From: Rickettsiales bacterium
GTDB lineage: Bacteria; Pseudomonadota; Alphaproteobacteria; Rs-D84
Length of the DNA stretch: 64,000 nucleotides
Assembly: GCA_031260805.1 (NCBI GenBank)
Contig: JAISKV010000001.1
Coordinates: 20,978 to 84,977 of the forward strand
Direction of reading: 5' to 3'
Part shown: in pieces, positions 8,202 through 64,000 of the stretch
Numbering within the stretch: position 1 is the stretch's first letter
How the letters are laid out: every line of letters begins with the position of its first letter
Notes under the pieces: generated by a model
The model's input: only the letters and a program-made list of their open reading frames with translations
Told to the model about the DNA's origin: nothing
Database searches by the model: none
Position numbers and translations under genes: made by a program

Positions 8202-10262
8202 TTGGAGTTAAGGACAAAGAAAATTTTAATTTATTCCTTTCGTTTCGCGATGATTTTAGTCGTGGGGCTGGGAATCGCGGCATACACCGCATTATCCAAG
8301 ATTGATTTGGAAAAACTGCGCGGCCAGGTTGTTTCCATGCTGTCCAGCGCGACCGGGCTGCCTGTGGAAATAGATGGCGAAATCAAGTGGCGTTTTTCAT
8401 TAAAGCCGCAGATTGCGTTGGAAAAAGTATCAATCAAAAATGCTGCTTGGGCCAAGCATGCCGATGGCGTCCAGATCGGGCGCATGACGGCGACGCTGAA
8501 CCTGTTGTCTGTCATCCGCGGCGCGCCAGCGATTGACAAGTTGCACATCCAGGATTTGCGCGTTTATTTAGAGCAGAATGGTCAAGGCGAATATTCCTTG
8601 CAGCCGGCGGCTGGTGGCAAGCATGATTCGCAATATCCGTTCAATACTGATTTGGGGTTTTATTCGCTGGAATTGTCAAATCCGAAAGTCGCATTGATAA
8701 CGCCGTCAAAGATGGATATTATTGAACTGTCCGGCGCCAAGTTGAAATATCAACACAGCCGGGACAATGTTTCATATTCCGGGTATGTCGCCCGCAGGGA
8801 TATGGTGGTTCCGTTCGTTGTGTCGCTGATGCCTTATAACAGCGATCGCCGGGTTTATCCGGTCAAGGTCGCGATTGCCACCGGCGGCGATCCGCTGATT
8901 GCAAACATCGCGCTGGAAGGAACCAGCCTTATTCCCATAGACTTTACGGCATCCGGCACTATTTCCGACATGAACGGGATTGCGCGGGTGTTTGATTTTG
9001 AGTTGCCTGACATCCAGGATATCAGGTTGAATGTATCCGGCGGATTTGGAAAAACGAATATAAAATTTCATAAATCAACAATTTCATCCGGCAGGAATGA
9101 TCTGACATTTTCCGGAAATTATGACTGGAAGTCCAATAAGATTTCCGCGAATATAAAGTCTTCGCGGCTCAGTCTGCTGGAACTGGTCCCAGGCCTGTAC
9201 AAGCCAGATCCATGGGTCCGGCCAAAGCGGGAACTGAATGTATTCCACGATACGCCGCTGGGCAAATACTTTCCGCGCAAAATGACCGCCGATATAACCG
9301 CGTCCCTGGGCAATCTGATAGTTTACCGCGATCTGGCGGTGAAAAACGCCAATATTGGGATAAAGTTGCAGGACGACCATCTGGCCGTTGATGCCAGCGC
9401 GGTTTTTGCCGGCGGCACCGTGCGCGCCGCCGCCGAAATTCTGAACAACGACGGCGTCCTGTCGGTTAAGGCCGCGTCCCACGGCGACCGTATTTCTGTC
9501 GGGGACCTGATGGCCGCCGTGCGCGAGCCGCGGACGATCTCCGATCTGCCCATGACTTACGACTTTTATCTGCAAGGATACGGGCGCGACCTGACCGGGC
9601 TGATGTCAACGGTCAGCGGCCCGATTTATATTTACTCGGCGGACAAGGGCTATGCCCACGAAGACATGATAGAATATTTCTATGGCCAGGATCTGATAAC
9701 CAAACTCCGGCAGGGCGTTCAGAATTTGTTCGTGTCAAAAAACAAAAACGATCAGATAAAAATCTCATGCGCGGTGGTTAACCTTAAAATCCGCGACGGC
9801 AAGATAGAGTCCGACAACGGCATCGCGATGGAATCAAACGCGATAAATGTCCTGGCGCGCGGGATGGTTGATTTGGGCCAGGAAAAAATCAATTCATCAA
9901 TCGTTATCACGCCTTCGCGCGGGATAAAATTATCGCTGGAAGGCAATGTTATAAATTTTGTAGAGTTTGCGGACAACTTGGCCGAGCCGACGATTAAAGT
10001 AAATGGCAGCGCGCTGGCATCGCGGGCGATAACCGCGGTGGGACTGGGGATTCTGCTGACGCCCTTCACAGGCGGACTGGGGCTGCTGGCGGGCGCGGGA
10101 CTGGGATATGTTTACAGCGAAATGCTTGACAACTGGCTGGCTGACGAGCATCCTTGCAAGACAGCGACGCGTTCCGGCGCGCCGGCGGCCAAGGGCGATC
10201 CGGACTGGCTGAACATGCCGGTATCCGAATTGGTCGGGACGATGATTAAAAATGATAAGTAA
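8202..10262 (+). CDS. AsmA-family outer-membrane biogenesis protein
   Basis: N-terminal membrane anchor followed by a large beta-rich periplasmic region typical of the AsmA/TamB-like family. Called on size and composition only. Confidence 0.5.
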   Translation: MELRTKKILIYSFRFAMILVVGLGIAAYTALSKIDLEKLRGQVVSMLSSATGLPVEIDGEIKWRFSLKPQIALEKVSIKNAAWAKHADGVQIGRMTATLNLLSVIRGAPAIDKLHIQDLRVYLEQNGQGEYSLQPAAGGKHDSQYPFNTDLGFYSLELSNPKVALITPSKMDIIELSGAKLKYQHSRDNVSYSGYVARRDMVVPFVVSLMPYNSDRRVYPVKVAIATGGDPLIANIALEGTSLIPIDFTASGTISDMNGIARVFDFELPDIQDIRLNVSGGFGKTNIKFHKSTISSGRNDLTFSGNYDWKSNKISANIKSSRLSLLELVPGLYKPDPWVRPKRELNVFHDTPLGKYFPRKMTADITASLGNLIVYRDLAVKNANIGIKLQDDHLAVDASAVFAGGTVRAAAEILNNDGVLSVKAASHGDRISVGDLMAAVREPRTISDLPMTYDFYLQGYGRDLTGLMSTVSGPIYIYSADKGYAHEDMIEYFYGQDLITKLRQGVQNLFVSKNKNDQIKISCAVVNLKIRDGKIESDNGIAMESNAINVLARGMVDLGQEKINSSIVITPSRGIKLSLEGNVINFVEFADNLAEPTIKVNGSALASRAITAVGLGILLTPFTGGLGLLAGAGLGYVYSEMLDNWLADEHPCKTATRSGAPAAKGDPDWLNMPVSELVGTMIKNDK

Positions 10263-16223: not shown

Positions 16224-19200
16224 ATGACAAAATCAAAAGCATTGTTTTCAATAATTGGAATGTTGTTGGCGCTGCCCGCATTCGCGGCCCCGTCGGTGCG
16301 CATGCTGCCGCGGACTGGAACTCCGCTGCCTGACGCGGTCAAAGATTCCGGCGACAGCAGCGATGCAACCGTGCAGATTCAAGACGAAACGGATTCGGCA
16401 TCGCGCCCCAGCGGCGGCTATGTTCTGGGCGGCGGCAGTTCTGTGGCCGCGGGCCGGGCATCTTCAACGCGCGCATCATCGTCGCGTGCCGCAACTTCGG
16501 GCCAGGCGCGTTTGTCCGTGGGCAAGTTCTTGAACAACGCCGTGGCGAAAAAGACGCCTGGCGCGGTTATAACAACACCGGGCGCCAGCACTGAAAATAT
16601 GCGCGATTACGCGACGAATGAAGACTTGGCGGATGTCGGCCAGTTGATCCAGGATGTTGATGATGATCTGCATGACAATTATTATGACAAGTCAAATGTT
16701 GACTCGCAAATGGATGGCAAGGCGGACAAGTTGTTAAGCGGCGCGGCCGGAAACTTGCTGGAACTTTCCGCGGATGGAAATTACCGCGATTCCGGCCAGA
16801 CGATATCCAGCATTGCAGCGAATACGGCGACCAAGGCGAATTTGCTGGTGTCCGGATTTACGGCGGGCAATATCGCGACGATTGCGGCGGATGGAAATTA
16901 TCAGGACAGCGGGATTGATCCGGCGACACTGGCAACCAAGACCTATGTTGATTCTGCAATTGGCGACGCGGGCAGCAATTTGTCAGACGCGGTTTCCAAT
17001 ATTACGACCAGCATCGCGACCAAGGCCGATTTGGTTATTGGCGCGGCCGAAGATAATTTTGCATCATTGACGGCGACCGGGAATTTGGCTGACAGCGGAT
17101 TTTCTGCGGACAGTTTTGCGGGCCGCACTGCGACAATTGACGCGTTGGCAGTCAAGGCCGACAAGGTTGCGGGCGCCACCGGTGGAAATTTTGCCGGTCT
17201 GGATGCAAACGGAAATCTGACTGATTCAGGTAAAAAAGCGGCTGATTTTGTCGCCAAGAACAAAACTGTTACGACTGGTAATTTCGCGGCGGTGAACGCG
17301 GCCAGCGGGGAATTTACAGACAGTGGGTTCAAGGCTGGCGATTTCGCGACAGCGGCGCAAGGGTTGCTGGCGGTCAATGCGATTCCGCGCGTTACAAATC
17401 CGACAGCCGGGCATATTGTGAAATTGGATGCCAGCGGCAATCTGGTTGACGGCGGTACTTTGGGTTCAATGGCCGGCAAGAGCGGTGTTACTTCCGAAGA
17501 CATCAATGACGGCACGATCATGAATGTGGACATTTCGCCGATTGCGCAGATTGCGCGCGAAAAATTGTCCGACGGGGTCCAGGATTCATTGGCTTTGGCG
17601 GATAATTCGGTCCAGAAATCCACAAACGGCGTTGTGCCTGTGGAAAACAATCTGGCAATGTACGATGCCAGCGGCAATTTGACCGATTCCGGTGAAAGCG
17701 TTGCGACGCTGAAAGATTACACGGATGTTGCGGTTTATAACGAAGAACAGGCGCGGATTGCGGATGTTGATGCCGAAGAAGCGGCGCGGATTCTGGCAAT
17801 ATCAAATGAAGCGGCGGCACGGACCGCGGCGGATACGGCGCTATCAAATGCATTGGCCCAGGAAATTTCAGACAGAATCGCGGATGTGAATGCCGAAGAA
17901 GCGGCGCGGATTCTGGCCGTGTCAAATGAAGCGGCAACGCGAAGCGCGGCGGATACGGCCCTATCAAATGCATTGACCCAAGAAATTTCAGACAGAACGG
18001 CGGCGATTGCGGCCGAAGCGGCGGCGCGTACCGCTGCGGACACAACACTGTCAAACGCGCTGGCCCAGGAAATTTCCGACAGAACGCTTGCGATTTCTAA
18101 TGAAGTATCGGCGCGAAGTGCGGCGGATACCGCGCTCTCGAACGCGCTGACCGCGGCGATTGCCCAGGAAGTGGTTGACAGAAACACTGCAATTCTGAAC
18201 GATGCAGTTCAGACGGTGGTGCTGGCATCTGGCACGGCCGAAGGCACATTGAAAATAACAGTTGATGGCGCGACCACGGATAATGTCTCGGTCAAGGATT
18301 GGGCGAAAGTCGCGCATAAAATGGAAACTTATCCGGCCGGCCATGCGGATGCGATCGTTATCCGCGACACAAACGGGGATGTTATTGCATCCGGCACCAA
18401 TCTGGCGGATATCGCGGACGCCATTGCAAATGCTGTCCAGAATGTCGCTTTTGCAACCGGGTCAACCGGCGGTTCGTTGAAAATCACAGTGAACGGCGTT
18501 GACAAGGAAGCGACTGTCAAGGATTGGGATACCAAGGCTGATAAAGTTATTTCGGCGACAAATAATAACTTTGCAGGATTGAATGCGGCCGGAAATCTGA
18601 CAGATTCTGGCAAGAATGCGACCAGTTTTATTGCGAATGCGGCCAGCGCGGTCTTGAACAGCCATATTGCGGACGATGCGGTCCAGACCGGCAAGATAAA
18701 AGACTTGAATATAACAACGAACAAATTGGCCGACAGCGCGGTTACCAGCATAAAAATCGCCGATGGAACAATTGCGACGGTTGATATTTCCGATGGCGCT
18801 ATTACATTACCGAAGATAAACGCGACCGCGTACGATACTGCGGTTACATCCGCGTCTGCAAAACTGATTACCAGTGGCGGCGTGTACACTGCAATTCAGG
18901 ACAGCGCGGTTCAGACGGCGGTTTTGGCATCCGGAACAAATTCCGGCACGATGAAACTAACCGTGGATGGCGTCGCGACGGACAATGTCGCTGTTACCGG
19001 ATGGGGGACCAAGGCGGACAAGGCCGTGCCGACAACCGCGAACAATATCGCGATATTGGATTCAATCGGGAATTACAAGGACAGCGGGACTTCGCTGGCG
19101 GATATCGCTGCGTCTATCGCGACTGCGATTAACAGCACGCTGGACAGCGGAAATGTTTCAATAACAACAGGAACCAGCAACGGATATGTCAAACTGACAG

Positions 19201-20195
19201 TCAACGGAACTCCGCAAGAGGCCGAGGTCAAGGGGATAAACACAGCGGCATACCAGCCGTCCAGCGCGTTTATCGCGAATGCAGCGAATGCGGTCTTGAA
19301 CAGCCATATCAATGCAGCCGCGGTTGATTCTGCCAAGTTGGCGACCGATTCGGTTATAACGGCCAAGATTATGAACGCAGCGGTGACGGTGGATAAAATG
19401 GCGGCCAGTTCCGTCGGATCCGCGCAGATTATTGACGGTTCAATTGCTACTGCGGATCTGGGCGCGGGCGTTGTTACTAATGCGAAACTGGCGGCGAATT
19501 CGGTTGCTTCGTCCAATATCATTGATGGATCGGTTGACGAAGTTGACTTGGCTGCGAACAGCGTGACCAGCGCGAAGATAGCGAACGGCAACATAACATT
19601 TGCAAAAATGGCGACCGGCGCGGTTGATGCGACGCTGACCGCGGCATCTGACAAGTTGCCGACATCAGCGGCGGTTTCCAATGCATTGACTGCGGCGGTT
19701 TCCGCGGCGGTCAGCTCGACGACATACTCTGCCGGAAATGGAATTGACATAACATCCAATGTTATCAAGGCGATTGCGGACGCGACGGGCGGACTGTCTG
19801 TGGCGGCTGCCGGGATGAAAATCGCGGACAGCGGCGTTACGACGGCGCGGATAAATAATGCTGCGGTGACGGCTGACAAACTGGCGGCGGATTCAGTCAT
19901 AACGAACAAATTGGCCGACAGCGCGGTTACCAGCATAAAAATCGCCGATGGAACAATTGCGACGGTTGATATTTCCGATGGCGCTATTACCAGTGCAAAA
20001 ATACTGGATGGAACGATTGCGGCGGCTGATTTGGGTCCGAACAGCGTTATAACCGCAAAAATCGCCGACAGCAATGTTACCAAGGTTAAATTGGAAACTT
20101 CGGTCCAAACGACATTGGATTGGGTTGGAACAATACCTGTGGGCGCGCCGGGCGGAACCCCGTCGGCGGGACGCGCATTCATCTGGATAGAATAA
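16224..20195 (+). CDS. giant secreted fibre/adhesin-like protein with phage-tail-fibre-like repeats
   Basis: 1323 aa with a signal peptide. Ala/Ser-rich region. About 35-aa repeats ending in (D/T)DSG. Four coiled-coil units AAARTAADTALSNALAQEISDR. Many 11-residue xxAVTxxKIADG repeats. Confidence 0.6.
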   Translation: MTKSKALFSIIGMLLALPAFAAPSVRMLPRTGTPLPDAVKDSGDSSDATVQIQDETDSASRPSGGYVLGGGSSVAAGRASSTRASSSRAATSGQARLSVGKFLNNAVAKKTPGAVITTPGASTENMRDYATNEDLADVGQLIQDVDDDLHDNYYDKSNVDSQMDGKADKLLSGAAGNLLELSADGNYRDSGQTISSIAANTATKANLLVSGFTAGNIATIAADGNYQDSGIDPATLATKTYVDSAIGDAGSNLSDAVSNITTSIATKADLVIGAAEDNFASLTATGNLADSGFSADSFAGRTATIDALAVKADKVAGATGGNFAGLDANGNLTDSGKKAADFVAKNKTVTTGNFAAVNAASGEFTDSGFKAGDFATAAQGLLAVNAIPRVTNPTAGHIVKLDASGNLVDGGTLGSMAGKSGVTSEDINDGTIMNVDISPIAQIAREKLSDGVQDSLALADNSVQKSTNGVVPVENNLAMYDASGNLTDSGESVATLKDYTDVAVYNEEQARIADVDAEEAARILAISNEAAARTAADTALSNALAQEISDRIADVNAEEAARILAVSNEAATRSAADTALSNALTQEISDRTAAIAAEAAARTAADTTLSNALAQEISDRTLAISNEVSARSAADTALSNALTAAIAQEVVDRNTAILNDAVQTVVLASGTAEGTLKITVDGATTDNVSVKDWAKVAHKMETYPAGHADAIVIRDTNGDVIASGTNLADIADAIANAVQNVAFATGSTGGSLKITVNGVDKEATVKDWDTKADKVISATNNNFAGLNAAGNLTDSGKNATSFIANAASAVLNSHIADDAVQTGKIKDLNITTNKLADSAVTSIKIADGTIATVDISDGAITLPKINATAYDTAVTSASAKLITSGGVYTAIQDSAVQTAVLASGTNSGTMKLTVDGVATDNVAVTGWGTKADKAVPTTANNIAILDSIGNYKDSGTSLADIAASIATAINSTLDSGNVSITTGTSNGYVKLTVNGTPQEAEVKGINTAAYQPSSAFIANAANAVLNSHINAAAVDSAKLATDSVITAKIMNAAVTVDKMAASSVGSAQIIDGSIATADLGAGVVTNAKLAANSVASSNIIDGSVDEVDLAANSVTSAKIANGNITFAKMATGAVDATLTAASDKLPTSAAVSNALTAAVSAAVSSTTYSAGNGIDITSNVIKAIADATGGLSVAAAGMKIADSGVTTARINNAAVTADKLAADSVITNKLADSAVTSIKIADGTIATVDISDGAITSAKILDGTIAAADLGPNSVITAKIADSNVTKVKLETSVQTTLDWVGTIPVGAPGGTPSAGRAFIWIE

Positions 20196-20220: not shown

Positions 20221-20256
20221 AGTTTTCAGAGTTCAGAGTGCAGAGTTCAGTTTTTG

Positions 20257-20322
20257 CCACTACCCCGTCGCGCTGCGCGCGCCACCCCTTCGCTGGCGAA
20301 TGGGCGGCGGCGGGGTAGTGGT
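20257..20322. repeat. GC-rich palindromic element CCACTACCCCGTCGCGCTGCGCGCGCCACCCCTTCGCTGG ... CGGGGTAGTGG
   Basis: Same motif recurs at 60117-60313; flanked by CAGAGTTCAG and AACTAATAACTAATA tandem words. Confidence 0.75.
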
Positions 20323-20357
20323 ATAACAACTAATAACTAATAACTAATAATTCATAA

Positions 20358-20710: not shown

Positions 20711-21277
20711 GTGAAATTGCAAGAACGAATTTTAGAGCATGCCGCGCACCCAATGATGTTCTGGGCTGTCATGATTCTGACAATTTGCGAGTCCATATTT
20801 CTATTCATCCCGCCAGAGGTTTTTATGACCCCGCCGATTGTCGCGGACAAAAAGCGCGCGGTTCCGATTGTTGTCGCGGCATCGGTCGGCAGTTTGATTG
20901 GGGGCGCGATTGCTTATGCGGTCGGGCTGTGGCTGTATGACACGATCGGAATCTGGATTATTAATTTCGTATCGTCGCCCGAATCGTTCGAGATGGCAAA
21001 AACGATGTTTGACAAATACGGATTGCTGGTCATATTTATGGCGGCATTTACGCCTGTGCCGTACAAGTTTCTGGCGATTGCAGCCGGATTTCTGGGGTAC
21101 AACCCATGGCTGTTCATCGGCGTGTCGGCGATTTTCCGCACAGGCCGATTTGCGTTGGTCGGATTTTTATTATGGAAGTTTCAGCGCGCGGCGAACGAAA
21201 TTGTGAAAAAATATTTCTGGCCGCTGACGGCTTTGGCGGTAATTGCCGCTGGACTGGGCGTGCTTTTAATTTTATGA
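20711..21277 (+). CDS. DedA/YqaA-family inner membrane protein
   Basis: 188 aa polytopic membrane protein with the glycine-rich DedA-like core (GSLIGGAIAYAVG). Confidence 0.5.
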   Translation: MKLQERILEHAAHPMMFWAVMILTICESIFLFIPPEVFMTPPIVADKKRAVPIVVAASVGSLIGGAIAYAVGLWLYDTIGIWIINFVSSPESFEMAKTMFDKYGLLVIFMAAFTPVPYKFLAIAAGFLGYNPWLFIGVSAIFRTGRFALVGFLLWKFQRAANEIVKKYFWPLTALAVIAAGLGVLLIL

Positions 21278-21284
21278 TGTCGTT

Positions 21285-22100
21285 ATGGAAGAAATGAATG
21301 AAGTTTTTAACGAAATTCAGGTTGAAAAGAAAACGATAATTTCTTTCGCTGATGTCGCCGCGCGATACGACAACGGGCGCGAAGTTTTGGCTGATGTGTC
21401 GTTTAATATTTCCGCGGGGGCTTTCTATTTTCTGTCCGGGGCGTCCGGCGCGGGAAAGACCACGCTGCTGCGCTTGATTTACCAACTGCACCGGCAATCG
21501 CGCGGCCAGATAAAGTTATTCGGGCGCAGCGTTTCGGAATTATCGCGCGATGAAATCATTAAAATGCGCCGCAAGATGGCAATTGTTTTCCAAGAATATT
21601 CCCTGATATCGCATCTGTCCGTGTTTGACAATATCGCGATGCCGCTGCGTGTGCGCGGCGTCGCGGAAAAGATAGTGCGCAAGAAAACGGCCCAGGTCTT
21701 AAAGTGGATCGGGCTGTCCGCGTATGCGAATATTCTGCCGCTGAATTTGTCCGGCGGCCAGCAGCAGCGCGTCAGCGTCGCCCGCGCGATTATAACCAGT
21801 CCTGAAATATTGCTGGCGGACGAACCGACTGGAAACCTGGACGACGATTCGGCGCGAAAACTGATGGAACTGTTTATCCAGATGAATGCAAAGTTCGGCA
21901 CGACGATAATCCTGGCGACGCACAGCACGGGATTGATGAATACTTATAAATTTCCGAAAATACTGGTCGCGGACCATCGCGTGCGTTTCGCAGGCGATGC
22001 CGCGGCATCCGATGACATAAAATTCTCCGGCGGGGGCAAGGTGTTTTTATCCAAACTGGGGCAGCAATTTTCAGCATTGGCGGGCGGCGATGAAAAATAA
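21285..22100 (+). CDS. ftsE: cell division ATP-binding protein FtsE
   Basis: ABC ATPase Walker [10 protein letters not shown], signature LSGGQQQRV, Walker [13 protein letters not shown]; followed by ftsX. Confidence 0.85.
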
Positions 22101-25417: not shown

Positions 25418-26410
25418 ATGAGTCATCAGTTCTTCTTTTCACCGTACATATTGGATAATCTGGTGGCGCCGGCGGCCGGATTCAGCGTGTTCCAGGATAT
25501 TGCCCAGCCGAAACTGAAAATTTACATAACCGCGCGCGGCGTGCGGACTTTCTTTACGCGCAAGCGCGTGCACGGCCGGGACCAGCGGATAATTCTGGGC
25601 AATTATCCGGAAACAGACATTGAAACGGCGCGGGGAATTCTGGGCGATGCGATTGCGGCGCGGTGCGCGCCGATTCAGAAGAAAAATGCCGCGATTAGTG
25701 TCGGCGCGCTGATTAAAATCTGGATTCGCGATAAAATTAAGTCCAAGTCCAAAACTCTGCGCGCGACAACACGGCACTTTGGCAAAATATGGACCAAGCG
25801 GCTGAGCGCAATAACCGCGGACGAACTGGGCGAGATTATCCGCAGCATCGCTGAATCCGCCGGGCCGGCAATCGCGTGCCGGATGCGCTGCGCCGCGGTC
25901 AGTTTTTTCAAGCATGCGGTGCAACTGGGATACCTGGAAAAAAATCCGGCCGCGGGGATTCCCAGGATTGCGGCCCAGCCGCGGCATAAAAACAGGCTCA
26001 GTTGGACGGCATTGTCAAAACTGGTCCGCGCGATACGGTCTGAACAGGACGAAAATACGCGGCGCGCGTTTTTAATGCTGGTTTACGGATTTGCAAATCG
26101 GTCGCGGATTTTTTCAATGCGTTGGTCGGACATAGATTTTAACCAGTACGCATGGCATGACGGGCTGCTGTCCGATCCGGCCATAGATTTAATCCAGGAA
26201 ATGTCCCAGGATTTCGTATGGCTGTTTCCGGGGCGCGGCCGCCGGCATCTGACGGATCCGCGCGGGGCGTGGCGGCGGATTGTGAAAAATGCGGGCTTGC
26301 GCGAAATCCAAATGAATGATGTTTACAAGTTTCTGAAATCAAAACTTCCGAAAACCGGCGATATTTATGAATTGCGCGCCGCGAAAAACGATATCTTGAC
26401 AAAAATTTGA
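25418..26410 (+). CDS. phage-type tyrosine integrase-like protein, probably truncated/degenerate
   Basis: N-terminal P4-type arm-binding domain (KLKIYITARGVRTFFTRKRV). SAM-like core-binding domain. Only the start of the catalytic domain (FLMLVYGFANRSRIFSMRWSDID). No clear HxxR...Y tail. 330 aa. Confidence 0.5.
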   Translation: MSHQFFFSPYILDNLVAPAAGFSVFQDIAQPKLKIYITARGVRTFFTRKRVHGRDQRIILGNYPETDIETARGILGDAIAARCAPIQKKNAAISVGALIKIWIRDKIKSKSKTLRATTRHFGKIWTKRLSAITADELGEIIRSIAESAGPAIACRMRCAAVSFFKHAVQLGYLEKNPAAGIPRIAAQPRHKNRLSWTALSKLVRAIRSEQDENTRRAFLMLVYGFANRSRIFSMRWSDIDFNQYAWHDGLLSDPAIDLIQEMSQDFVWLFPGRGRRHLTDPRGAWRRIVKNAGLREIQMNDVYKFLKSKLPKTGDIYELRAAKNDILTKI

Positions 26411-39069: not shown

Positions 39070-39120
39070 TTTCAGAGTTCAGAATTCAGTATTTTGACTG
39101 AACTCTGAAAACTGAAAACT
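39070..39120. repeat. palindromic hairpin of CAGAGTTCAGAATTCAG words
   Basis: TTTTCAGAGTTCAGAATTCAGTATTTTGACTGAACTCTGAAAACTGAAAAC. Same word family at about 20228-20252, 52795-52820 and 60482-60522. Confidence 0.8.
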
Positions 39121-49877: not shown

Positions 49878-50447
49878 ATGAGACATATGAAAGCAGGAAG
49901 AACGCTGAATCGTGATACGAACGCGCGCAAGGCGCTGTTTCGCGGGCTCTGCGTCAGTCTGATAGAGCACGAGCAGATAAAAACCACTCTGCCCAAGGCC
50001 AAGGATTTGCGCGGCATCGTTGAAAAATTAATCACGCGCGCAAAAGTTGACAATGTCGCGAACCGCCGTCTGGTTGCGTCCGAATTGGGCGATGCGCGCG
50101 AAGCGGTCAAGAAACTGTTTACTGTCTTGGGACCGCGGTATCTGGAACGCAAGGGCGGATACACCCGCGTGTTAAAGGCTGGTTTTCGCTATGGCGATGC
50201 CGCGCCGATGGCAATAATTGAATTGGTTGATCGCGACGAAGCCGCCAAGGGCAAAAAGCAGAAAGAGCAGGTTGCGGCCGTCAAGGGCCCGGCTGACGCC
50301 CCGGTTGCGGTCGCTGACAAGAAAGTTGTAAAGAAAGCGCCTGTGGTCAAAGCAGAAAAATTGGAAAAAGAAACAAAAGTCGCAACGCCGCGTGTAAAGT
50401 CAGAGAAATCCGCTCCGGCTGTCCGCCGCCGCGCCACCGGCAAGTAA
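49878..50447 (+). CDS. rplQ: 50S ribosomal protein L17 with Lys/Ala-rich C-terminal extension
   Basis: [13 protein letters not shown]...L17 core (~120 aa) followed by ~70-aa KAPV-rich tail. Confidence 0.9.
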
Positions 50448-59181: not shown

Positions 59182-60081
59182 TTAAACCTCGTCAACATGA
59201 AACACCACCCGGATTCCGGATTTTTCCCATTCGGCGATTTTCGCGTCCAGGTCCATGATATTTTTTTCTTTCAGATACAAGACCGGATTGGCCAGGCCGC
59301 TTAATTTTTTTATCGGCGATTCAATCTGCTTGCCGGTCGCAAACCAAAATTCCGGATCCGCAATAAAGAAGTCAGGATCGTCGTGGGTGTATACATTGGA
59401 ATCTCCAATCTTTGACAGACCGGCCGGCGCAGGGGCGGGGGCGGTCGTAGTAAAGTTCAGGTCCCGGAACACTGGCGCTGCGGCCGTTGCCGCGACATCA
59501 AAACTGTCCGGCAATGGCAGCGGACATGTGTTTTCATCGGCCGCCACATTTGGCGCATCGGCCGGCGCGGCGACATGCGCGATCACATCGCATCCGCCGG
59601 TTGGCGTGCAGACGACCCGCTGCGCAATCGGCAGTTCGGTGAAAGTCTTTTTGATATTTGCGAATGCGCCGCTCAATTCTGCGGGAATTTCTTCGGGAAC
59701 TATGATTTTGGGTTCTTCTTTTTTTTCAACGGACTCTGTCTGCTTCTCTGCGTCTGGCTCTTTCTTTTTGGGCAATTTGCATGAAATAGGAATAATCGGC
59801 TTGGCAGTTTTGTAGATTATGACGCATGCCGCCAGATAAATTGGTATGACCGCCGCCATGGTTATGACCAGAATAAACCCGGAATATCCATGCAGGCGGG
59901 TGTGCGAAAAAGTATTCCATGCAACGGCTTGCAATATGTCAAAGTCAAACAAGAACCGGAAAACCAAGTAAACGGCAATAAAATACCATGCAGTCCACAG
60001 GGCTATGTTTTTGAGTTTTATAAAAAAATCCTTGACCTTTGCCATTTGCGTCATTCTGACACAAATTATTGTTTTTGTCAA
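59182..60081 (-). CDS. hypothetical membrane protein with Pro/Ala-rich linker
   Basis: Two N-terminal TM helices, charged linker, PAPAPA low complexity, conserved-looking C-terminal domain (DPDFFIADPEFWFATG); no known motifs. Confidence 0.45.
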   Translation of the reverse strand: MTKTIICVRMTQMAKVKDFFIKLKNIALWTAWYFIAVYLVFRFLFDFDILQAVAWNTFSHTRLHGYSGFILVITMAAVIPIYLAACVIIYKTAKPIIPISCKLPKKKEPDAEKQTESVEKKEEPKIIVPEEIPAELSGAFANIKKTFTELPIAQRVVCTPTGGCDVIAHVAAPADAPNVAADENTCPLPLPDSFDVAATAAAPVFRDLNFTTTAPAPAPAGLSKIGDSNVYTHDDPDFFIADPEFWFATGKQIESPIKKLSGLANPVLYLKEKNIMDLDAKIAEWEKSGIRVVFHVDEV

Positions 60082-60116
60082 ATAGTAGTTAGTTGGAATT
60101 CAGGGTGCAGTTTATT

Positions 60117-60313
60117 ACCACTACCCCGTCGCGCTGCGCGCGCCACCCCTTCCCGGGCCCCGCGAAAAACAAAGTTTTTCGTGGGTGGATCCCAGCGAAG
60201 GGGATTTTGATGGCCTGCATCACATAATAAAATGATATTTATTGAAACGAAGTCGGGATAATCCCCTTCGCTGGCGAAGGGGTGGCGCGCGCAGCGCGAC
60301 GGGGTAGTGGTAG
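60117..60313. repeat. long palindromic element with CCACTACCCCGTCGCGCTGCGCGCGCCACCCCTTC arms (same family as 20257-20322)
   Basis: Left arm 60117-60165, right arm about 60262-60313, about 100-nt loop. Followed by an AATTAAGAA-word palindrome (about 60310-60420). Confidence 0.75.
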
Positions 60314-60425
60314 AATTATGAATTAAGAAAGAAGAATTAAGAATTATAAAATTATGTCTGACACTCTGTTTATTATAGCAGACAACGATAATTCTTATTT
60401 CTTAATTGTTAATTCTTAATTAAAT

Positions 60426-60487
60426 CCTGTAAACCACCCCGGCCTGCGGCCACCCCTCCAAAGGAGGGGAACTGGCCCCGCAACTAA
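60426..60487. repeat. copy of CCTGTAAACCACCCC...GGGGAACTGGCC arm (family of 51172-51497)
   Basis: CCTGTAAACCACCCCGGCCTGCGGCCACCCCTCCAAAGGAGGGGAACTGGCC, followed by CAGAGTTCAG-type words. Confidence 0.7.
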
Positions 60488-60590
60488 ACTCTGAACTCTG
60501 AACCCCGAACTCTGAAAACTAGTAATTTTTCCCTTTTATTAAATTGCCAAAGTATGTTAAAATGCAAGAGATTAATTCAAGAGAGAATCT

Positions 60591-63299
60591 TTGAGAAAAA
60601 TGCGCATTTTTTGTATGGCTGCGCTGGCCGCATGTTTTGCGTTGCCCGCAGTTTCCGCATCGCGGCCGGGCGTTGCGCCTGATGCTGCGGCCCAGGGGTC
60701 GGCGGCAGTGGCGCGTCGCGGCGGCACAATGCCTATGGCGGTTTCCGATGGCGGCGCGAATGCCGCGCGGGCAGGGGCATTGCGCGCGACGCCGAATGCG
60801 CCTGCCGCGCCGACTGTCGTGGCGCGCGCCGGGGCGACACAAAAGGTTGTCGGCACCGGCGTCAAGGTTAATGCCGCGGTTCAGAACAGTGTTGTCGGTG
60901 GCGAATGCCGAGAAAAATATTTCGGCTGCATGGACAGTTTCTGCATGATTGAAAACGACAACGGCGGCCGGTGCATTTGTTCTTCACGCAAGTCTGAATT
61001 GGACAAGGTTCTGGCTGAAATTGAAAAACTGGACGACCAGACTTTCAAGCTGGCGACCAAGGGCGTTGAAAAGATTGAAATGGGCGCGAATGCCGACTAT
61101 ATCTTCAAGACGGCCGAGGCGGCCGAAAAGGACGCGCTGGGCGAATCCGAACTGGAAAAAAACAAGAACAAAATTCGTCCGACTAAAAAGTTGGACATGA
61201 GCATGTGGACCGCTTACGAGGTGGAAGAACTTGAAATCCCGTCTGATGGAATTTCAGACAAATCCGGAAACGCGCGCTTGGTCGCGGCGCATGATTTATG
61301 CCAGCGATCCATCGGCAACGACTGCTCGGTCCAGGATTTCAACATGGTTCAGACGATGTATCAGACGAATGTGCAATCCGACTGCCGCGCGTATGAAAAT
61401 TATCTGAAACAAAAGAAAAACGAATCGTCGCAAAAACTGTCAACGGCGCAGAGCGCGGTGCGCGAGGCTGCACTGGCATCTTTTGAGAATGCGAACAAGT
61501 ACAATTTGGGCGAATGCAGCATTGAAATGAAAAAGTGCATGGCGAAAACCGCCGGGTGCAAGGATGACTTTACCGGGTGCGTGGGGCTGGCCGCGGCGGA
61601 AAACATCAAGCGCGGCAAGGCCAAGACTTATGACATCAAGGGCACAACGACCAAGGTTACGATAAACGCCAGCACTTACGACACCATGCTGGCGAAAAAG
61701 CCGCTGTGCTTTGACACCGTGGTATCGCAGTGCATCGCGGTGCGCGATCAGGTGTGGGATGTGTTTTTGCGCGACATCGCGCCGACATTGAAAAGCGCGG
61801 AATTGGTGGCGGAATCAGACTTGCGCATGAACTGCATCAGCAATATTTCCAACTGTTTCCAAAAGGCGTGCAAAGACAACATGGATCCTGCGAATCCCGA
61901 AGGATCGTACGACATGTGCCTTTCGCGGCCGCAGACATTGGAAAGCGTCTGCAAAATCCAGATTGATCCGTGCAAACAGGCCGAGCCGCAGATTCTGAAC
62001 TTTGTCAAGGCGCGCGTCGCGGCGATGCGCGTGGACGCCTGCACGACCCAGGTTAAAAACTGCTATACCGCAGATACCGTTTGCGGCAAGAATTTCGAGA
62101 ACTGCATCGGGCTGGATCGCGATGCGATAATTGACATGTGCCCGGCGGAAAAACTGACCGCGTGCGTGCATACCAACGGCAATCCGGTGAAAGCGGGGGA
62201 TAAGATTTCCACTATCACGGGCCTGACTGATATGATTCAGGGGATCTACTTGTCAATTGACAATGCCGCGCTGGCGCAGTGCCAAAAAATCGCCAATGAC
62301 AAAATGATTGAGATTTGCGGCGACACCGCGTCGTGCGGGGCGTTCTCGGATGATTCAACGATGGGTACGGATTCGCTGTACGCCGCAAAGAACAGTTCCG
62401 GAAACTATGTAATCAGCGGGCTGATGAATTTCGGCAGCATCACGACTGCTAAGGACAATCAGACGAATGATGACGGACGCGTCCAGTTCGCGTCGGAAAA
62501 ATTAAGTTATACAACTTGCGCGACCGATACGGCGGCCAAGAATCGCATAGAGGCATCGTTTAATACAATCAAGAATAAAACAGACAATCTGATTTCAATG
62601 CTGTCGTCGGATACCCAGCTGGGATACTGCTTGAACGGACGCAGCATGCGGCAGATTTCCGGCGCGGATTCAATGACGGCGACCGCGCGGTTCCCGAACC
62701 TGATTGATACCTATATGAAGGTTATTTTGGATGCCGGATTGACCAAGGCATCTGAAAATTATGATAAAAAGTTGAAAGAATTGGCGACCAAGGCGACGGA
62801 AAATCAAAGCGACGACATGAACGCGGCGATGTGCGCGGCGATGGCCAGCGATCGCGACAACTTGATTAATGTGTTTTCCGGAACCGGTGGAAATGACAAA
62901 TCAGATTCCAATTCCGGATTTTGCGGCACGGCGTCAATAACAATCAGCGGCGCTAGATTGACAGATTTGGCCAAGGCGGTATCCGGGGCGGACAAGGAAA
63001 TCTTGTTGCTGGGCACAAAAGGCGAGATGATCGCCAAGCAGCAGTACACCAGCATTTATTCGCGCGAATCAAACACATGCAAAATCAAAACTACGACCAT
63101 AGCGTGCAAAAGCACCGAAGCGCAGTATGATACCAGCAGCAGTTGCGGCAGCGGCGGAATAACGCTTATTGGCAGCGCATGCGGCGGCGGCCTGTTGAAA
63201 ATCGGGGGCAGCAAGAAAACGAGCACGCGGACATTCGCCGGCGTGATCTGCAAAGAGTTTGAGGCGCCGATAGAATCAGAGCAGACAATAGCGATGTGA
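60591..63299 (+). CDS. large secreted cysteine-rich protein (902 aa), unknown function
   Basis: Signal peptide. Ala-rich low-complexity segment. Then about 60 Cys in recurring CxnC spacings (e.g. CREKYFGCMDSFCMIENDNGGRCIC). No catalytic motifs recognised. Confidence 0.6.
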   Translation: MRKMRIFCMAALAACFALPAVSASRPGVAPDAAAQGSAAVARRGGTMPMAVSDGGANAARAGALRATPNAPAAPTVVARAGATQKVVGTGVKVNAAVQNSVVGGECREKYFGCMDSFCMIENDNGGRCICSSRKSELDKVLAEIEKLDDQTFKLATKGVEKIEMGANADYIFKTAEAAEKDALGESELEKNKNKIRPTKKLDMSMWTAYEVEELEIPSDGISDKSGNARLVAAHDLCQRSIGNDCSVQDFNMVQTMYQTNVQSDCRAYENYLKQKKNESSQKLSTAQSAVREAALASFENANKYNLGECSIEMKKCMAKTAGCKDDFTGCVGLAAAENIKRGKAKTYDIKGTTTKVTINASTYDTMLAKKPLCFDTVVSQCIAVRDQVWDVFLRDIAPTLKSAELVAESDLRMNCISNISNCFQKACKDNMDPANPEGSYDMCLSRPQTLESVCKIQIDPCKQAEPQILNFVKARVAAMRVDACTTQVKNCYTADTVCGKNFENCIGLDRDAIIDMCPAEKLTACVHTNGNPVKAGDKISTITGLTDMIQGIYLSIDNAALAQCQKIANDKMIEICGDTASCGAFSDDSTMGTDSLYAAKNSSGNYVISGLMNFGSITTAKDNQTNDDGRVQFASEKLSYTTCATDTAAKNRIEASFNTIKNKTDNLISMLSSDTQLGYCLNGRSMRQISGADSMTATARFPNLIDTYMKVILDAGLTKASENYDKKLKELATKATENQSDDMNAAMCAAMASDRDNLINVFSGTGGNDKSDSNSGFCGTASITISGARLTDLAKAVSGADKEILLLGTKGEMIAKQQYTSIYSRESNTCKIKTTTIACKSTEAQYDTSSSCGSGGITLIGSACGGGLLKIGGSKKTSTRTFAGVICKEFEAPIESEQTIAM

Positions 63300-63341
63300 T
63301 GAATAGCGAGCAGAGAAAGACAAATAGAGAATGATATTTTT

Positions 63342-63665
63342 ATGAAAAAATATATAGAAAATATTACGATAGGCGAGTTTTTGATAACAGAGTTTTTAGA
63401 ACCGCTGGGACTTTCGCAGAATGCCCTGGCCAGGGCTATTAATGTTCCGCAAAACCGCATAAACGAGATTGCGAATGGCAAGCGCGGTATTACGGCTGAT
63501 ACAGATTTGCGTTTGTGCAGATATTTTAATATGAGCGATGGATTCTTTTTAAGGGTTCAGACAAAAATAGATCAAGATATCGCAAGGCAAAAACTGGAAA
63601 ACGAGTTGAATCAAATAATTCCGTATGCAAATGACAATGGGCATCGGGATTTGATAGCGATGTAG
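63342..63665 (+). CDS. higA: HigA-family antitoxin-like XRE helix-turn-helix protein
   Basis: EFLEPLGLSQNALARAINVPQNRINEIANGKRGITADTDLRLCRYF matches the HigA/VapI HTH core. Confidence 0.75.
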   Translation: MKKYIENITIGEFLITEFLEPLGLSQNALARAINVPQNRINEIANGKRGITADTDLRLCRYFNMSDGFFLRVQTKIDQDIARQKLENELNQIIPYANDNGHRDLIAM

Positions 63666-63681
63666 AATAACTGAAAATATA

Positions 63682-64000
63682 AATGAAAAAATTTTATTAT
63701 TTATTCTTTATTCTTTTTTCTTTCGCGATGCCGGCGGCGTTGCATGCCGCATGCTCGTCCCTGAATCTGCAAACCTGCCTGGACAGCGCGTGCAACCTGA
63801 ACAGCATGGATCATGGCGAGCGGTGCAATCTGTGCGGCGGCGGATCGGGAAATTCTTCGCGCGAATCAACCGGATTGCAATCGCTGTCGCTGGGCGCGTC
63901 AAAATACGCGCTGACCGACAAAGAATTGAAAAATGCGCCGACCGGCAACGCGGGCCAGCGGTACATCTGGGCGACGGATCAATGCTTGAAAAAAGTTGTA
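63682..64000 (+). CDS. secreted cysteine-rich protein, paralog of 60591-63299 (5' part; runs off window)
   Basis: Signal peptide MKKFYYLFFILFSFAMPAALHA. CSSLNLQTCLDSACNLNSMDHGERCNLC shares the C-x7-C-xDS-xC-x9-RC-xC pattern with the upstream paralog. Confidence 0.5.

Follow-up and report, generated by a model that had tools for sequence, protein, structure and literature searches.

Cysteine-rich secreted proteins in a conserved gene block of an Rs-D84 alphaproteobacterium: a possible envelope or attachment complex

The stretch of DNA analysed here (the window) comprises 64,000 nucleotides of contig JAISKV010000001.1 (positions 20,978 to 84,977 of the forward strand; assembly GCA_031260805.1), from a Rickettsiales bacterium placed in the alphaproteobacterial lineage Rs-D84. 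Near its end lie two genes, designated A and C, for secreted proteins rich in cysteine (Cys). They are separated by a gene of the HigA antitoxin family and preceded by a membrane-protein gene, M, and a repeat-filled spacer. Comparison with related genomes indicates that A, C and M belong to a block of genes that recurs beside the ribosomal-protein gene rplQ, and whose products could form a disulfide-stabilised complex outside the cytoplasm. The features of the locus, with the basis of each assignment in brackets, are as follows; the window ends within C, and the sequence beyond it was read from a public contig that overlaps it, L001 (adding 60431 to an L001 coordinate gives that of the window).

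59182..60081 (-): M, membrane protein of ~300 aa (open reading frame (ORF) calling; synteny).
60082..60590: divergent spacer with nested palindromic repeats, copies of a dispersed intergenic element.
60600..63299 (+): A, secreted Cys-rich protein of 899 aa (ORF calling; 100% match to the deposited protein).
63342..63665 (+): HigA-family XRE helix-turn-helix gene, 107 aa, without HigB (TIGR02607, PF01381).
63683..64000, running past the window end (+): C, secreted protein predicted to be all-alpha, first 106 codons (ORF calling; overlapping contig L001).
64534-65106, window-equivalent of L001 4103-4675: gene for an ORF6N-domain (KilA-N/Rha-like) DNA-binding protein (1.7e-35).

The ORF of gene A extends from 60591 to 63299 (+) and encodes 902 aa if started at the TTG at 60591, as in the preliminary description of this DNA. 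The deposited protein (P0001, 'MAG: hypothetical protein LBO08_00495 [Rickettsiales bacterium]'; MAG, metagenome-assembled genome) begins at the ATG at 60600, is 899 aa long and is 100% identical. The signal peptide and the Ala-rich, low-complexity N-terminus reported earlier were both confirmed: the protein starts with what reads as a Sec signal peptide (MRKMRIFCMAALAACFALPAVSA, followed by S), and residues ~12-97 constitute an Ala/Arg/Gly/Pro-rich leader that is predicted to be disordered, with an AlphaFold predicted local distance difference test score (pLDDT) below 50. A lipoprotein reading of the 'LAAC' within the signal peptide was ruled out, since the homologues have no lipobox. The disordered leader, to ~97, is followed by a Cys-rich body of long helices (~100-760) and a C-terminal beta domain (~779-898). 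In the AlphaFold2 model built from the family alignment (pLDDT 69.3; predicted template modelling score, pTM, 0.37), the helices are up to 55 residues long and include 131-180, 244-298, 379-425 and 539-573, and the beta-rich C-terminal domain occupies 779-898.

The protein contains 40 Cys residues (4.4%), or 38 once the signal peptide is removed, so the earlier count of about 60 was too high. The regular spacing noted at the same time was upheld: 13 of the 39 gaps between adjacent Cys measure 6 or 7 residues, whereas 2.4 would be expected and none of 20,000 permutations gave more than 10.

Gene C starts at the ATG at 63683. On L001 (3252-4106) the complete gene was found to be intact, encoding 284 aa with 20 Cys (P0121), which agrees with the view of it as a second secreted Cys-rich gene running off the window and shows that it is not a frameshifted duplicate of A. 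Its AlphaFold2 model, also built from the family alignment, is all-alpha (pLDDT 79.9, pTM 0.40).

Both proteins have numerous relatives. More than 806 clusters of A homologues were found, full-length and 38-47% identical (best homologue 47%, E 1.6e-233); all of them bear the label 'hypothetical' and lack Pfam domains. With one genome scanned per species, 380 genomes encode a relative of A. All of these are MAGs of uncultured Alphaproteobacteria from guts, rumen and termites, many of them named Candidatus Enterousia. The invariant Cys set of the family (34 residues, n=48 sequences) is complete in the window protein. In nine loci (L013, L043, L044, L047, L048, L051, L071, L076 and L082), 2-4 A-like genes lie close together, often as divergent pairs; by this criterion the A family is expanded in some Enterousia-type species, and it is represented by a single copy within the window.

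When clustered at 90% identity, the C family (~287 aa) numbers 646 clusters. In an exhaustive HMMER search with the C profile, only 67 of 1.84 billion representatives, at 50% identity, were matched. The matches are ~280-300 aa long or fragments, save two weak eukaryotic ones. Twenty Cys are invariant (n=52 sequences). The two weak matches, the only ones from outside the Alphaproteobacteria, are P0305 from Amblyomma americanum (840 aa) and P0307 from Acipenser ruthenus (803 aa), Cys-repeat proteins in which a Cx6Cx6Cx6C module occurs 10 and 4 times, respectively (E 1.2e-6 and 6.2e-4). These tick and sturgeon matches are likely to reflect convergent Cys patterns.

No known family or fold was recognised in either protein. 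A matched no Pfam-A or NCBIfam family at E <= 1, and C matched none either, its sole trace being a sub-threshold DUF6485 (E 0.88). Searches of PDB sequences with the A and C profiles gave no match, and comparison of the AlphaFold models with PDB entries revealed no similar solved fold. Thus, A and C did not turn out to be members of a well-known housekeeping domain family in Pfam, NCBIfam or PDB.

The preliminary description regarded A and C as tandem paralogues, on the grounds of a first Cys module common to both. The motif itself is real, but the spacings then quoted were off by one: it reads C-x6-C-MDSF-C-x9-C-x-C in A and C-x7-C-LDSA-C-x10-C-x2-C in C, with G-C-M-D-x-F-C invariant in the A family and C-L-D-S-x-C in the C family. 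BLASTP aligned the two proteins with E 1e-4 over the central 139 residues, and with E 0.40 when the N-terminal motif alone was considered, while profile-profile comparison (hhalign) gave E 1.9e-5 and probabilities of 77.7% and 63.7%. Two modules, C-x6/7-C-[ML]DS-x-C and C-x6-C-x6-C-x3-[FWY]-x2-C, are common to A, C and a third Cys-rich family of the block, D. A C-x6-C-x6-C-x6-C module is present in two copies in A (internal repeat, 80% probability) and in one copy in C. Similar relationships extend to other proteins of the block: C and D align over 174 profile columns (90.6% probability), D and B over a short stretch of 38 columns (79%), and the heterogeneous F group and A have a C-terminal beta domain in common (95.6%). 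Since the similarity of A and C is confined to the level of modules, their relatedness is best described as ancient module sharing and not as recent tandem duplication. On sequence grounds, A and C are orthologues of two distinct, separately conserved families, and the idea of a tandem paralogue family finds no support. In most relatives, C is not adjacent to A and is the first gene of a separate operon, C-D(-E)-F, at a distance of several kb.

The organisation of the region in related genomes was compared by tblastn of reference proteins against 83 loci, with neighbour counts taken from the 48 loci of at least 20 kb. The recurring order is rpoA-rplQ-A(+) M(-) B(+) F(-) [E(-)] D(-) C(-) G(+), in which the bracketed E is not always present. 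Of these 48 loci, 43 have M within 10 kb of A, 44 have B, 37 have D and 34 have C. In 65 of 82 related loci, rplQ is found in the flank, within 10 kb of A, and it usually immediately precedes A. The window departs from this pattern. Here rplQ (49878-50447) lies ~10 kb upstream of the block rather than directly adjacent to it, the interval being occupied by genes for Skp, pyruvate kinase, PBP5, RecR, KsgA and a KefC-like protein; M is located upstream of A, and the C-D pair directly behind A.

The partners of A and C are proteins of quite different construction. M, encoded divergently from A and correctly recognised earlier as a membrane protein, begins with hydrophobic helices at its N-terminus, continues in a charged linker rich in Pro and Ala, and ends in a small domain. 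Along its whole length it shares 33-35% identity with the A-adjacent gene product in loci L002 and L003, and it has no Pfam or NCBIfam family and no PDB relative. B (~700 aa) contains 20-38 Cys and Gly-rich hydrophobic segments. Members of the D family (~450-600 aa) have at least 15 Cys and a single C-terminal membrane helix; the D protein of the window genome, encoded on L001 after the ORF6N gene, is Cys-rich, 448 aa long and ends in one Gly-zipper-like hydrophobic helix. No match to D was obtained in a PDB sequence search. F combines a Cys-rich N-terminal part with an OmpA-family peptidoglycan-binding domain (3.9e-15). G, a frequent neighbour of ~1220 aa, has an N-terminal ankyrin repeat and a C-terminus resembling a beta-barrel (autotransporter-like). 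Searches of Pfam and NCBIfam with A, C, M, B, D, E, F, G and the HigA-like and ORF6N proteins recognised only OmpA in F, ankyrin in G, HTH/HigA and ORF6N.

A thioredoxin-fold gene was considered as a general neighbour of A and rejected, being seen in the locus of one distant relative, L004, and in no other. There, a signal-peptide protein of thioredoxin/glutaredoxin fold (8665-9942; CPYC, C-terminal membrane anchor) is encoded together with a CvpA-like gene immediately upstream of A. This protein is a candidate for an oxidoreductase acting on the Cys-rich proteins.

The chemistry of the cysteines was assessed from their conservation and context. The number of invariant Cys is even in both families (34 in A, 20 in C), and most Cys sit in helices in the two models. 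The variable Cys also change in pairs: residues 830 and 894 of A, 64 positions apart, occur together in 34 of 91 sequences (r = 1.0), and further examples are two Cys co-inserted near A residue 596 and the pairs C 251/258 and D 406/418. Gain and loss in twos, and not in clusters of 3-4, counts against metal ligation. A contains neither a CxxCH nor a CxxC motif and does not fit the ligand pattern of a multihaem cytochrome or an Fe-S protein; His is nearly absent from it (2 in 902 residues). Taken together, Sec export, the invariant, even and paired Cys, the lack of CxxCH and CxxC, the scarcity of His and the placement of Cys in helices indirectly favour structural disulfides over metal ligation. 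The competing idea, that the Cys serve as metal or cofactor ligands in periplasmic redox or metal-storage proteins, would account for such a density of invariant Cys in an anaerobe reportedly lacking the usual quinone-linked disulfide route, and could draw on the one conserved CxxC of C (RC-x2-CG). We consider it very improbable, given that no haem or ferredoxin-type motifs and no metalloprotein family match were found and that the Cys are spread over hundreds of residues with a heptad-like spacing in helices.

The gene between A and C encodes a genuine member of the HigA family, as had been proposed: its product matches the HigA equivalog model TIGR02607 (8.8e-26, 89.6 bits; cut-off 47.7) and PF01381 HTH_3 (2.8e-09), and it shares 50-58% identity with HigA antitoxins annotated on plasmids. 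No HigB-like ORF or HigB remnant was found on either strand, the other ORFs nearby being antisense and without a Pfam match. The gaps on the two sides of higA measure 42 nt (63300-63341, from A) and 17 nt (63666-63682, to C). As these short gaps contain no terminator-like site, A-higA-C-orf6N-D looks like one transcription unit. The start of the ORF6N gene overlaps the stop of C, D begins 10 nt further downstream, and the ORF6N gene is absent from all other loci examined.

Among the 83 loci, higA occurs near the block in two, namely in the window genome and in L011, the locus of a termite-gut 'Rickettsiales' MAG, where a higA-like frame (…VPQNRINEIINGKRGITADT…, 21026-21400) stands directly after D, apparently frameshifted and fused to a downstream secreted-protein ORF. 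On the evidence of this second occurrence, higA appears to be recurrently linked to the Cys-rich cluster in the termite sublineage. We infer that higA and the ORF6N gene are lineage-specific additions and at most local regulators; the HigA-like protein is more likely a solitary XRE-type regulator or a remnant. In the window genome, the C-D operon would have moved behind A, and the two small genes would then have been inserted into the resulting co-directional array.

The spacer between M and A is dominated by repeats, as described before. Two inverted repeats lie in it, a perfect GC-rich one of 37 nt (60116-60152 / 60276-60312) and an AT-rich one of 34 nt (60314-60347 / 60388-60421), together with short direct 'CTGAACTCTG' units at 60484-60511; the promoter-like matches in it are weak, and a search of 59000-64000 against Rfam found no family. 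The arm of the GC-rich hairpin, 'CAGAGTTCAG' units and similar AT-rich units recur in intergenic positions, most clearly at 20227-20340, behind a large gene. Because the same units stand in other intergenic regions of the window, they are not specific to this locus, and the earlier view of the spacer as one of its marks was not sustained; the repeats are a dispersed intergenic element of the genome and not a signature of the A-C locus. In all, a composite repeat family was seen at 20227-20340, 39073-39107, 52806, 60116-60511 and elsewhere in the window, built of the GC-rich hairpin (arm CCACTACCCCGTCGCGCTGCGCGCGCCACCCCTTC), 'CAGAGTTCAG' units and AT-rich 'TAATAACTAATAA' / 'AGAATTAAGAATTA' units.

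These observations bear on the origin of the locus, which had been taken for an accessory one. In its fullest form, this reading supposes a possibly mobile locus with recent tandem paralogues under an orphan HigA-like regulator and flanking repeats. The mixing of higA and ORF6N genes, both typical of mobile elements, with the Cys-rich genes would suit such an origin, as would the repeat-rich upstream spacer and the higA-like remnant beside the cluster in a second termite-gut genome. We nevertheless judge it very improbable. A and C fall into different conserved families with similarity at the module level, hundreds of species keep the block in synteny next to the ribosomal-protein operon, the GC content across the region is unremarkable, the repeats are dispersed through the window, and higA is absent from 81 of the 83 related loci. 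The conserved synteny of A, M and B beside rplQ across relatives indicates instead that the locus is core and ancestral to the lineage, with only the two small DNA-binding genes being accessory.

Several other features of the window were recorded. A gene at 16224-20195 (+) encodes a Cys-free secreted protein of 1323 aa without a Pfam match, which carries the sequence 'AAPSVRMLPRTGTP ... SRAATSGQARLSVGK' after its signal peptide. This leader resembles a motif of the type 'QRMPTMP(T/I)LP' found after the signal peptides of B proteins (loci L002-L083), of which 62 of 62 contain the loose pattern R..[MLIV]P, and 'SRMPTM' in many D proteins. It likewise resembles 'RRGGTMPMAV ... ARAGATQKVVGTG' in the A protein of the window. 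The motif may be a lineage-specific N-terminal sorting or anchoring signal of large exported proteins. A 330-aa ORF at 25418-26410 (+), with a weak match to the central domain of phage integrases (6.1e-06, just below the Pfam cut-off), may represent an integrase remnant in an otherwise housekeeping stretch. The window also encodes TolB, Skp, an outer membrane protein beta-barrel, AsmA, MltG and PBP5, so that the bacterium has a normal diderm envelope, one in which the complex proposed below could be accommodated.

The RpoA and L17 proteins of the window are 72-80% and 77-85% identical, respectively, to those of the A-encoding genomes, and the window organism therefore belongs to the same lineage. 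Enterousia is a member of the GTDB order Rs-D84, an order that has genomes of ~0.75-1.6 Mb, does not respire and lacks biosynthetic pathways; its members are presumed to be symbionts or parasites of other cells (PMC12306168), and they occur in termite guts too (PMC11257099). The suggestion that such Cys-rich proteins point to a host-interacting type of lineage is in keeping with this reduced-genome, presumably partner-dependent group. A search of the literature on Cys-rich proteins in RF32, Rs-D84 or Enterousia yielded no description of the A-D proteins. The set of families has been deposited many times as 'hypothetical protein', and no family model, fold relative or literature description of it was found.

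We propose, with a probability of roughly one half, that the block encodes a disulfide-stabilised extracytoplasmic complex of the envelope, or one for attachment, that is characteristic of the lineage. The proposal builds on Sec export, on the invariant, paired Cys, on the position of the conserved block beside a highly expressed operon, and on the links to membrane-anchored (M, D, B) and peptidoglycan-binding (F) partners. After export, the proteins would form helical hairpins held together by disulfides, about 17 in A and 10 in C, and would then build up an abundant structural complex, either periplasmic or exposed on the surface. M, B and D could anchor this complex in the membrane and F could anchor it to peptidoglycan, and it would stiffen the envelope or build a contact structure with the partner cell that these metabolically dependent bacteria need.

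Several points weigh against this proposal. The confidence of the models is moderate (pTM 0.37-0.40); neither the window nor L001 was found to contain B, F or G; the paired gain and loss of Cys could partly stem from the shared ancestry of subclades; and the formation of more than 50 disulfides would need an oxidant in anaerobes that reportedly have no respiratory chains.

Alternatively, A, B, C and D could be surface adhesins or secreted effectors that lie beyond the outer membrane and act singly on a partner or host, in attachment, invasion or nutrient capture. Apart from the presumed dependence of the lineage on other cells, such a role would agree with the rapid evolution of A, which diverges much faster than housekeeping proteins (40-47% identity, compared to ~77% for RpoA), with the multiple A-like copies of some genomes, as antigen and adhesin families often show, and with the frequent presence of the autotransporter-like ankyrin protein G. 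However, no secretion-system genes are linked to the block, the membrane helix of D and the OmpA domain of F (which shares a domain with A) point to cell-bound parts internal to the envelope, and near-universal single-copy synteny beside rplQ fits a structural core function better. Independent action of this kind is the main rival of the proposed complex, and clearly less probable than it. The envelope complex proposed above can also be put in a more ambitious form, to which we attach a tentative and clearly smaller likelihood: the block A-M-B-C-D-F might specify an undescribed disulfide-cross-linked trans-envelope or cell-contact apparatus that defines Rs-D84 and underlies its obligate dependence, with folds that have no known relatives and an unconventional oxidative folding that proceeds without respiratory quinones.

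Rs-D84 bacteria, including Enterousia, are widespread in the guts of humans, livestock, rodents and termites and have genomes of ~1 Mb. A block of 4-6 secreted Cys-rich proteins, occupying more than 1% of such a genome beside the ribosomal-protein operon and kept in hundreds of species, is a strong candidate for the structure that defines the Rs-D84 envelope or its contact with a partner. It also raises the question of how dozens of Cys in the periplasm become oxidised in anaerobes that do not respire. These 'hypothetical proteins' make up at least four definable families, which deserve profile models.

The components of the block recall several known systems. As in a HigBA type II module, the higA product passes the HigA equivalog model; in contrast to such a module, its gene has no adjacent HigB gene and is enclosed by envelope genes in what resembles an operon. 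An OmpA-family domain forms the end of F, as it does in anchored proteins of the OmpA/Pal type, and suggests that the cluster is tied to the cell wall. However, the N-terminal part of F is Cys-rich and F has a beta domain in common with A, an arrangement not described for OmpA or Pal.

CHCH domains are disulfide-stapled helical hairpins with twin Cx9C motifs. The Cys of A and C are likewise regularly spaced on helices, even in number and predicted to pin neighbouring helices to each other. They differ in that the spacing is x6/x7 and x4, not x9 or x3, and in that A and C are bacterial, Sec-exported and hundreds of residues long, with no match in sequence or fold.

In the chlamydial cysteine-rich outer membrane complex, Sec-exported OmcB and OmcA, together with MOMP, probably make the envelope stiffer through their disulfide bonds. 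Like the proteins studied here, they form a set of envelope proteins of very different sizes, with ~4-7% Cys, in a dependent Gram-negative lineage with reduced genomes. The resemblance is functional only. A and C have no profile match to OmcB or OmcA, and no homology is seen; the repeats that make up OmcB are rich in beta structure, whereas helices predominate in the predictions for A and C; the bacteria studied here keep peptidoglycan enzymes and Tol-Pal; and nothing in A or C points to intermolecular over intramolecular disulfides. By analogy, the chlamydial complex is the closest functional counterpart of the proposed envelope complex, a resemblance in kind and not in membership.

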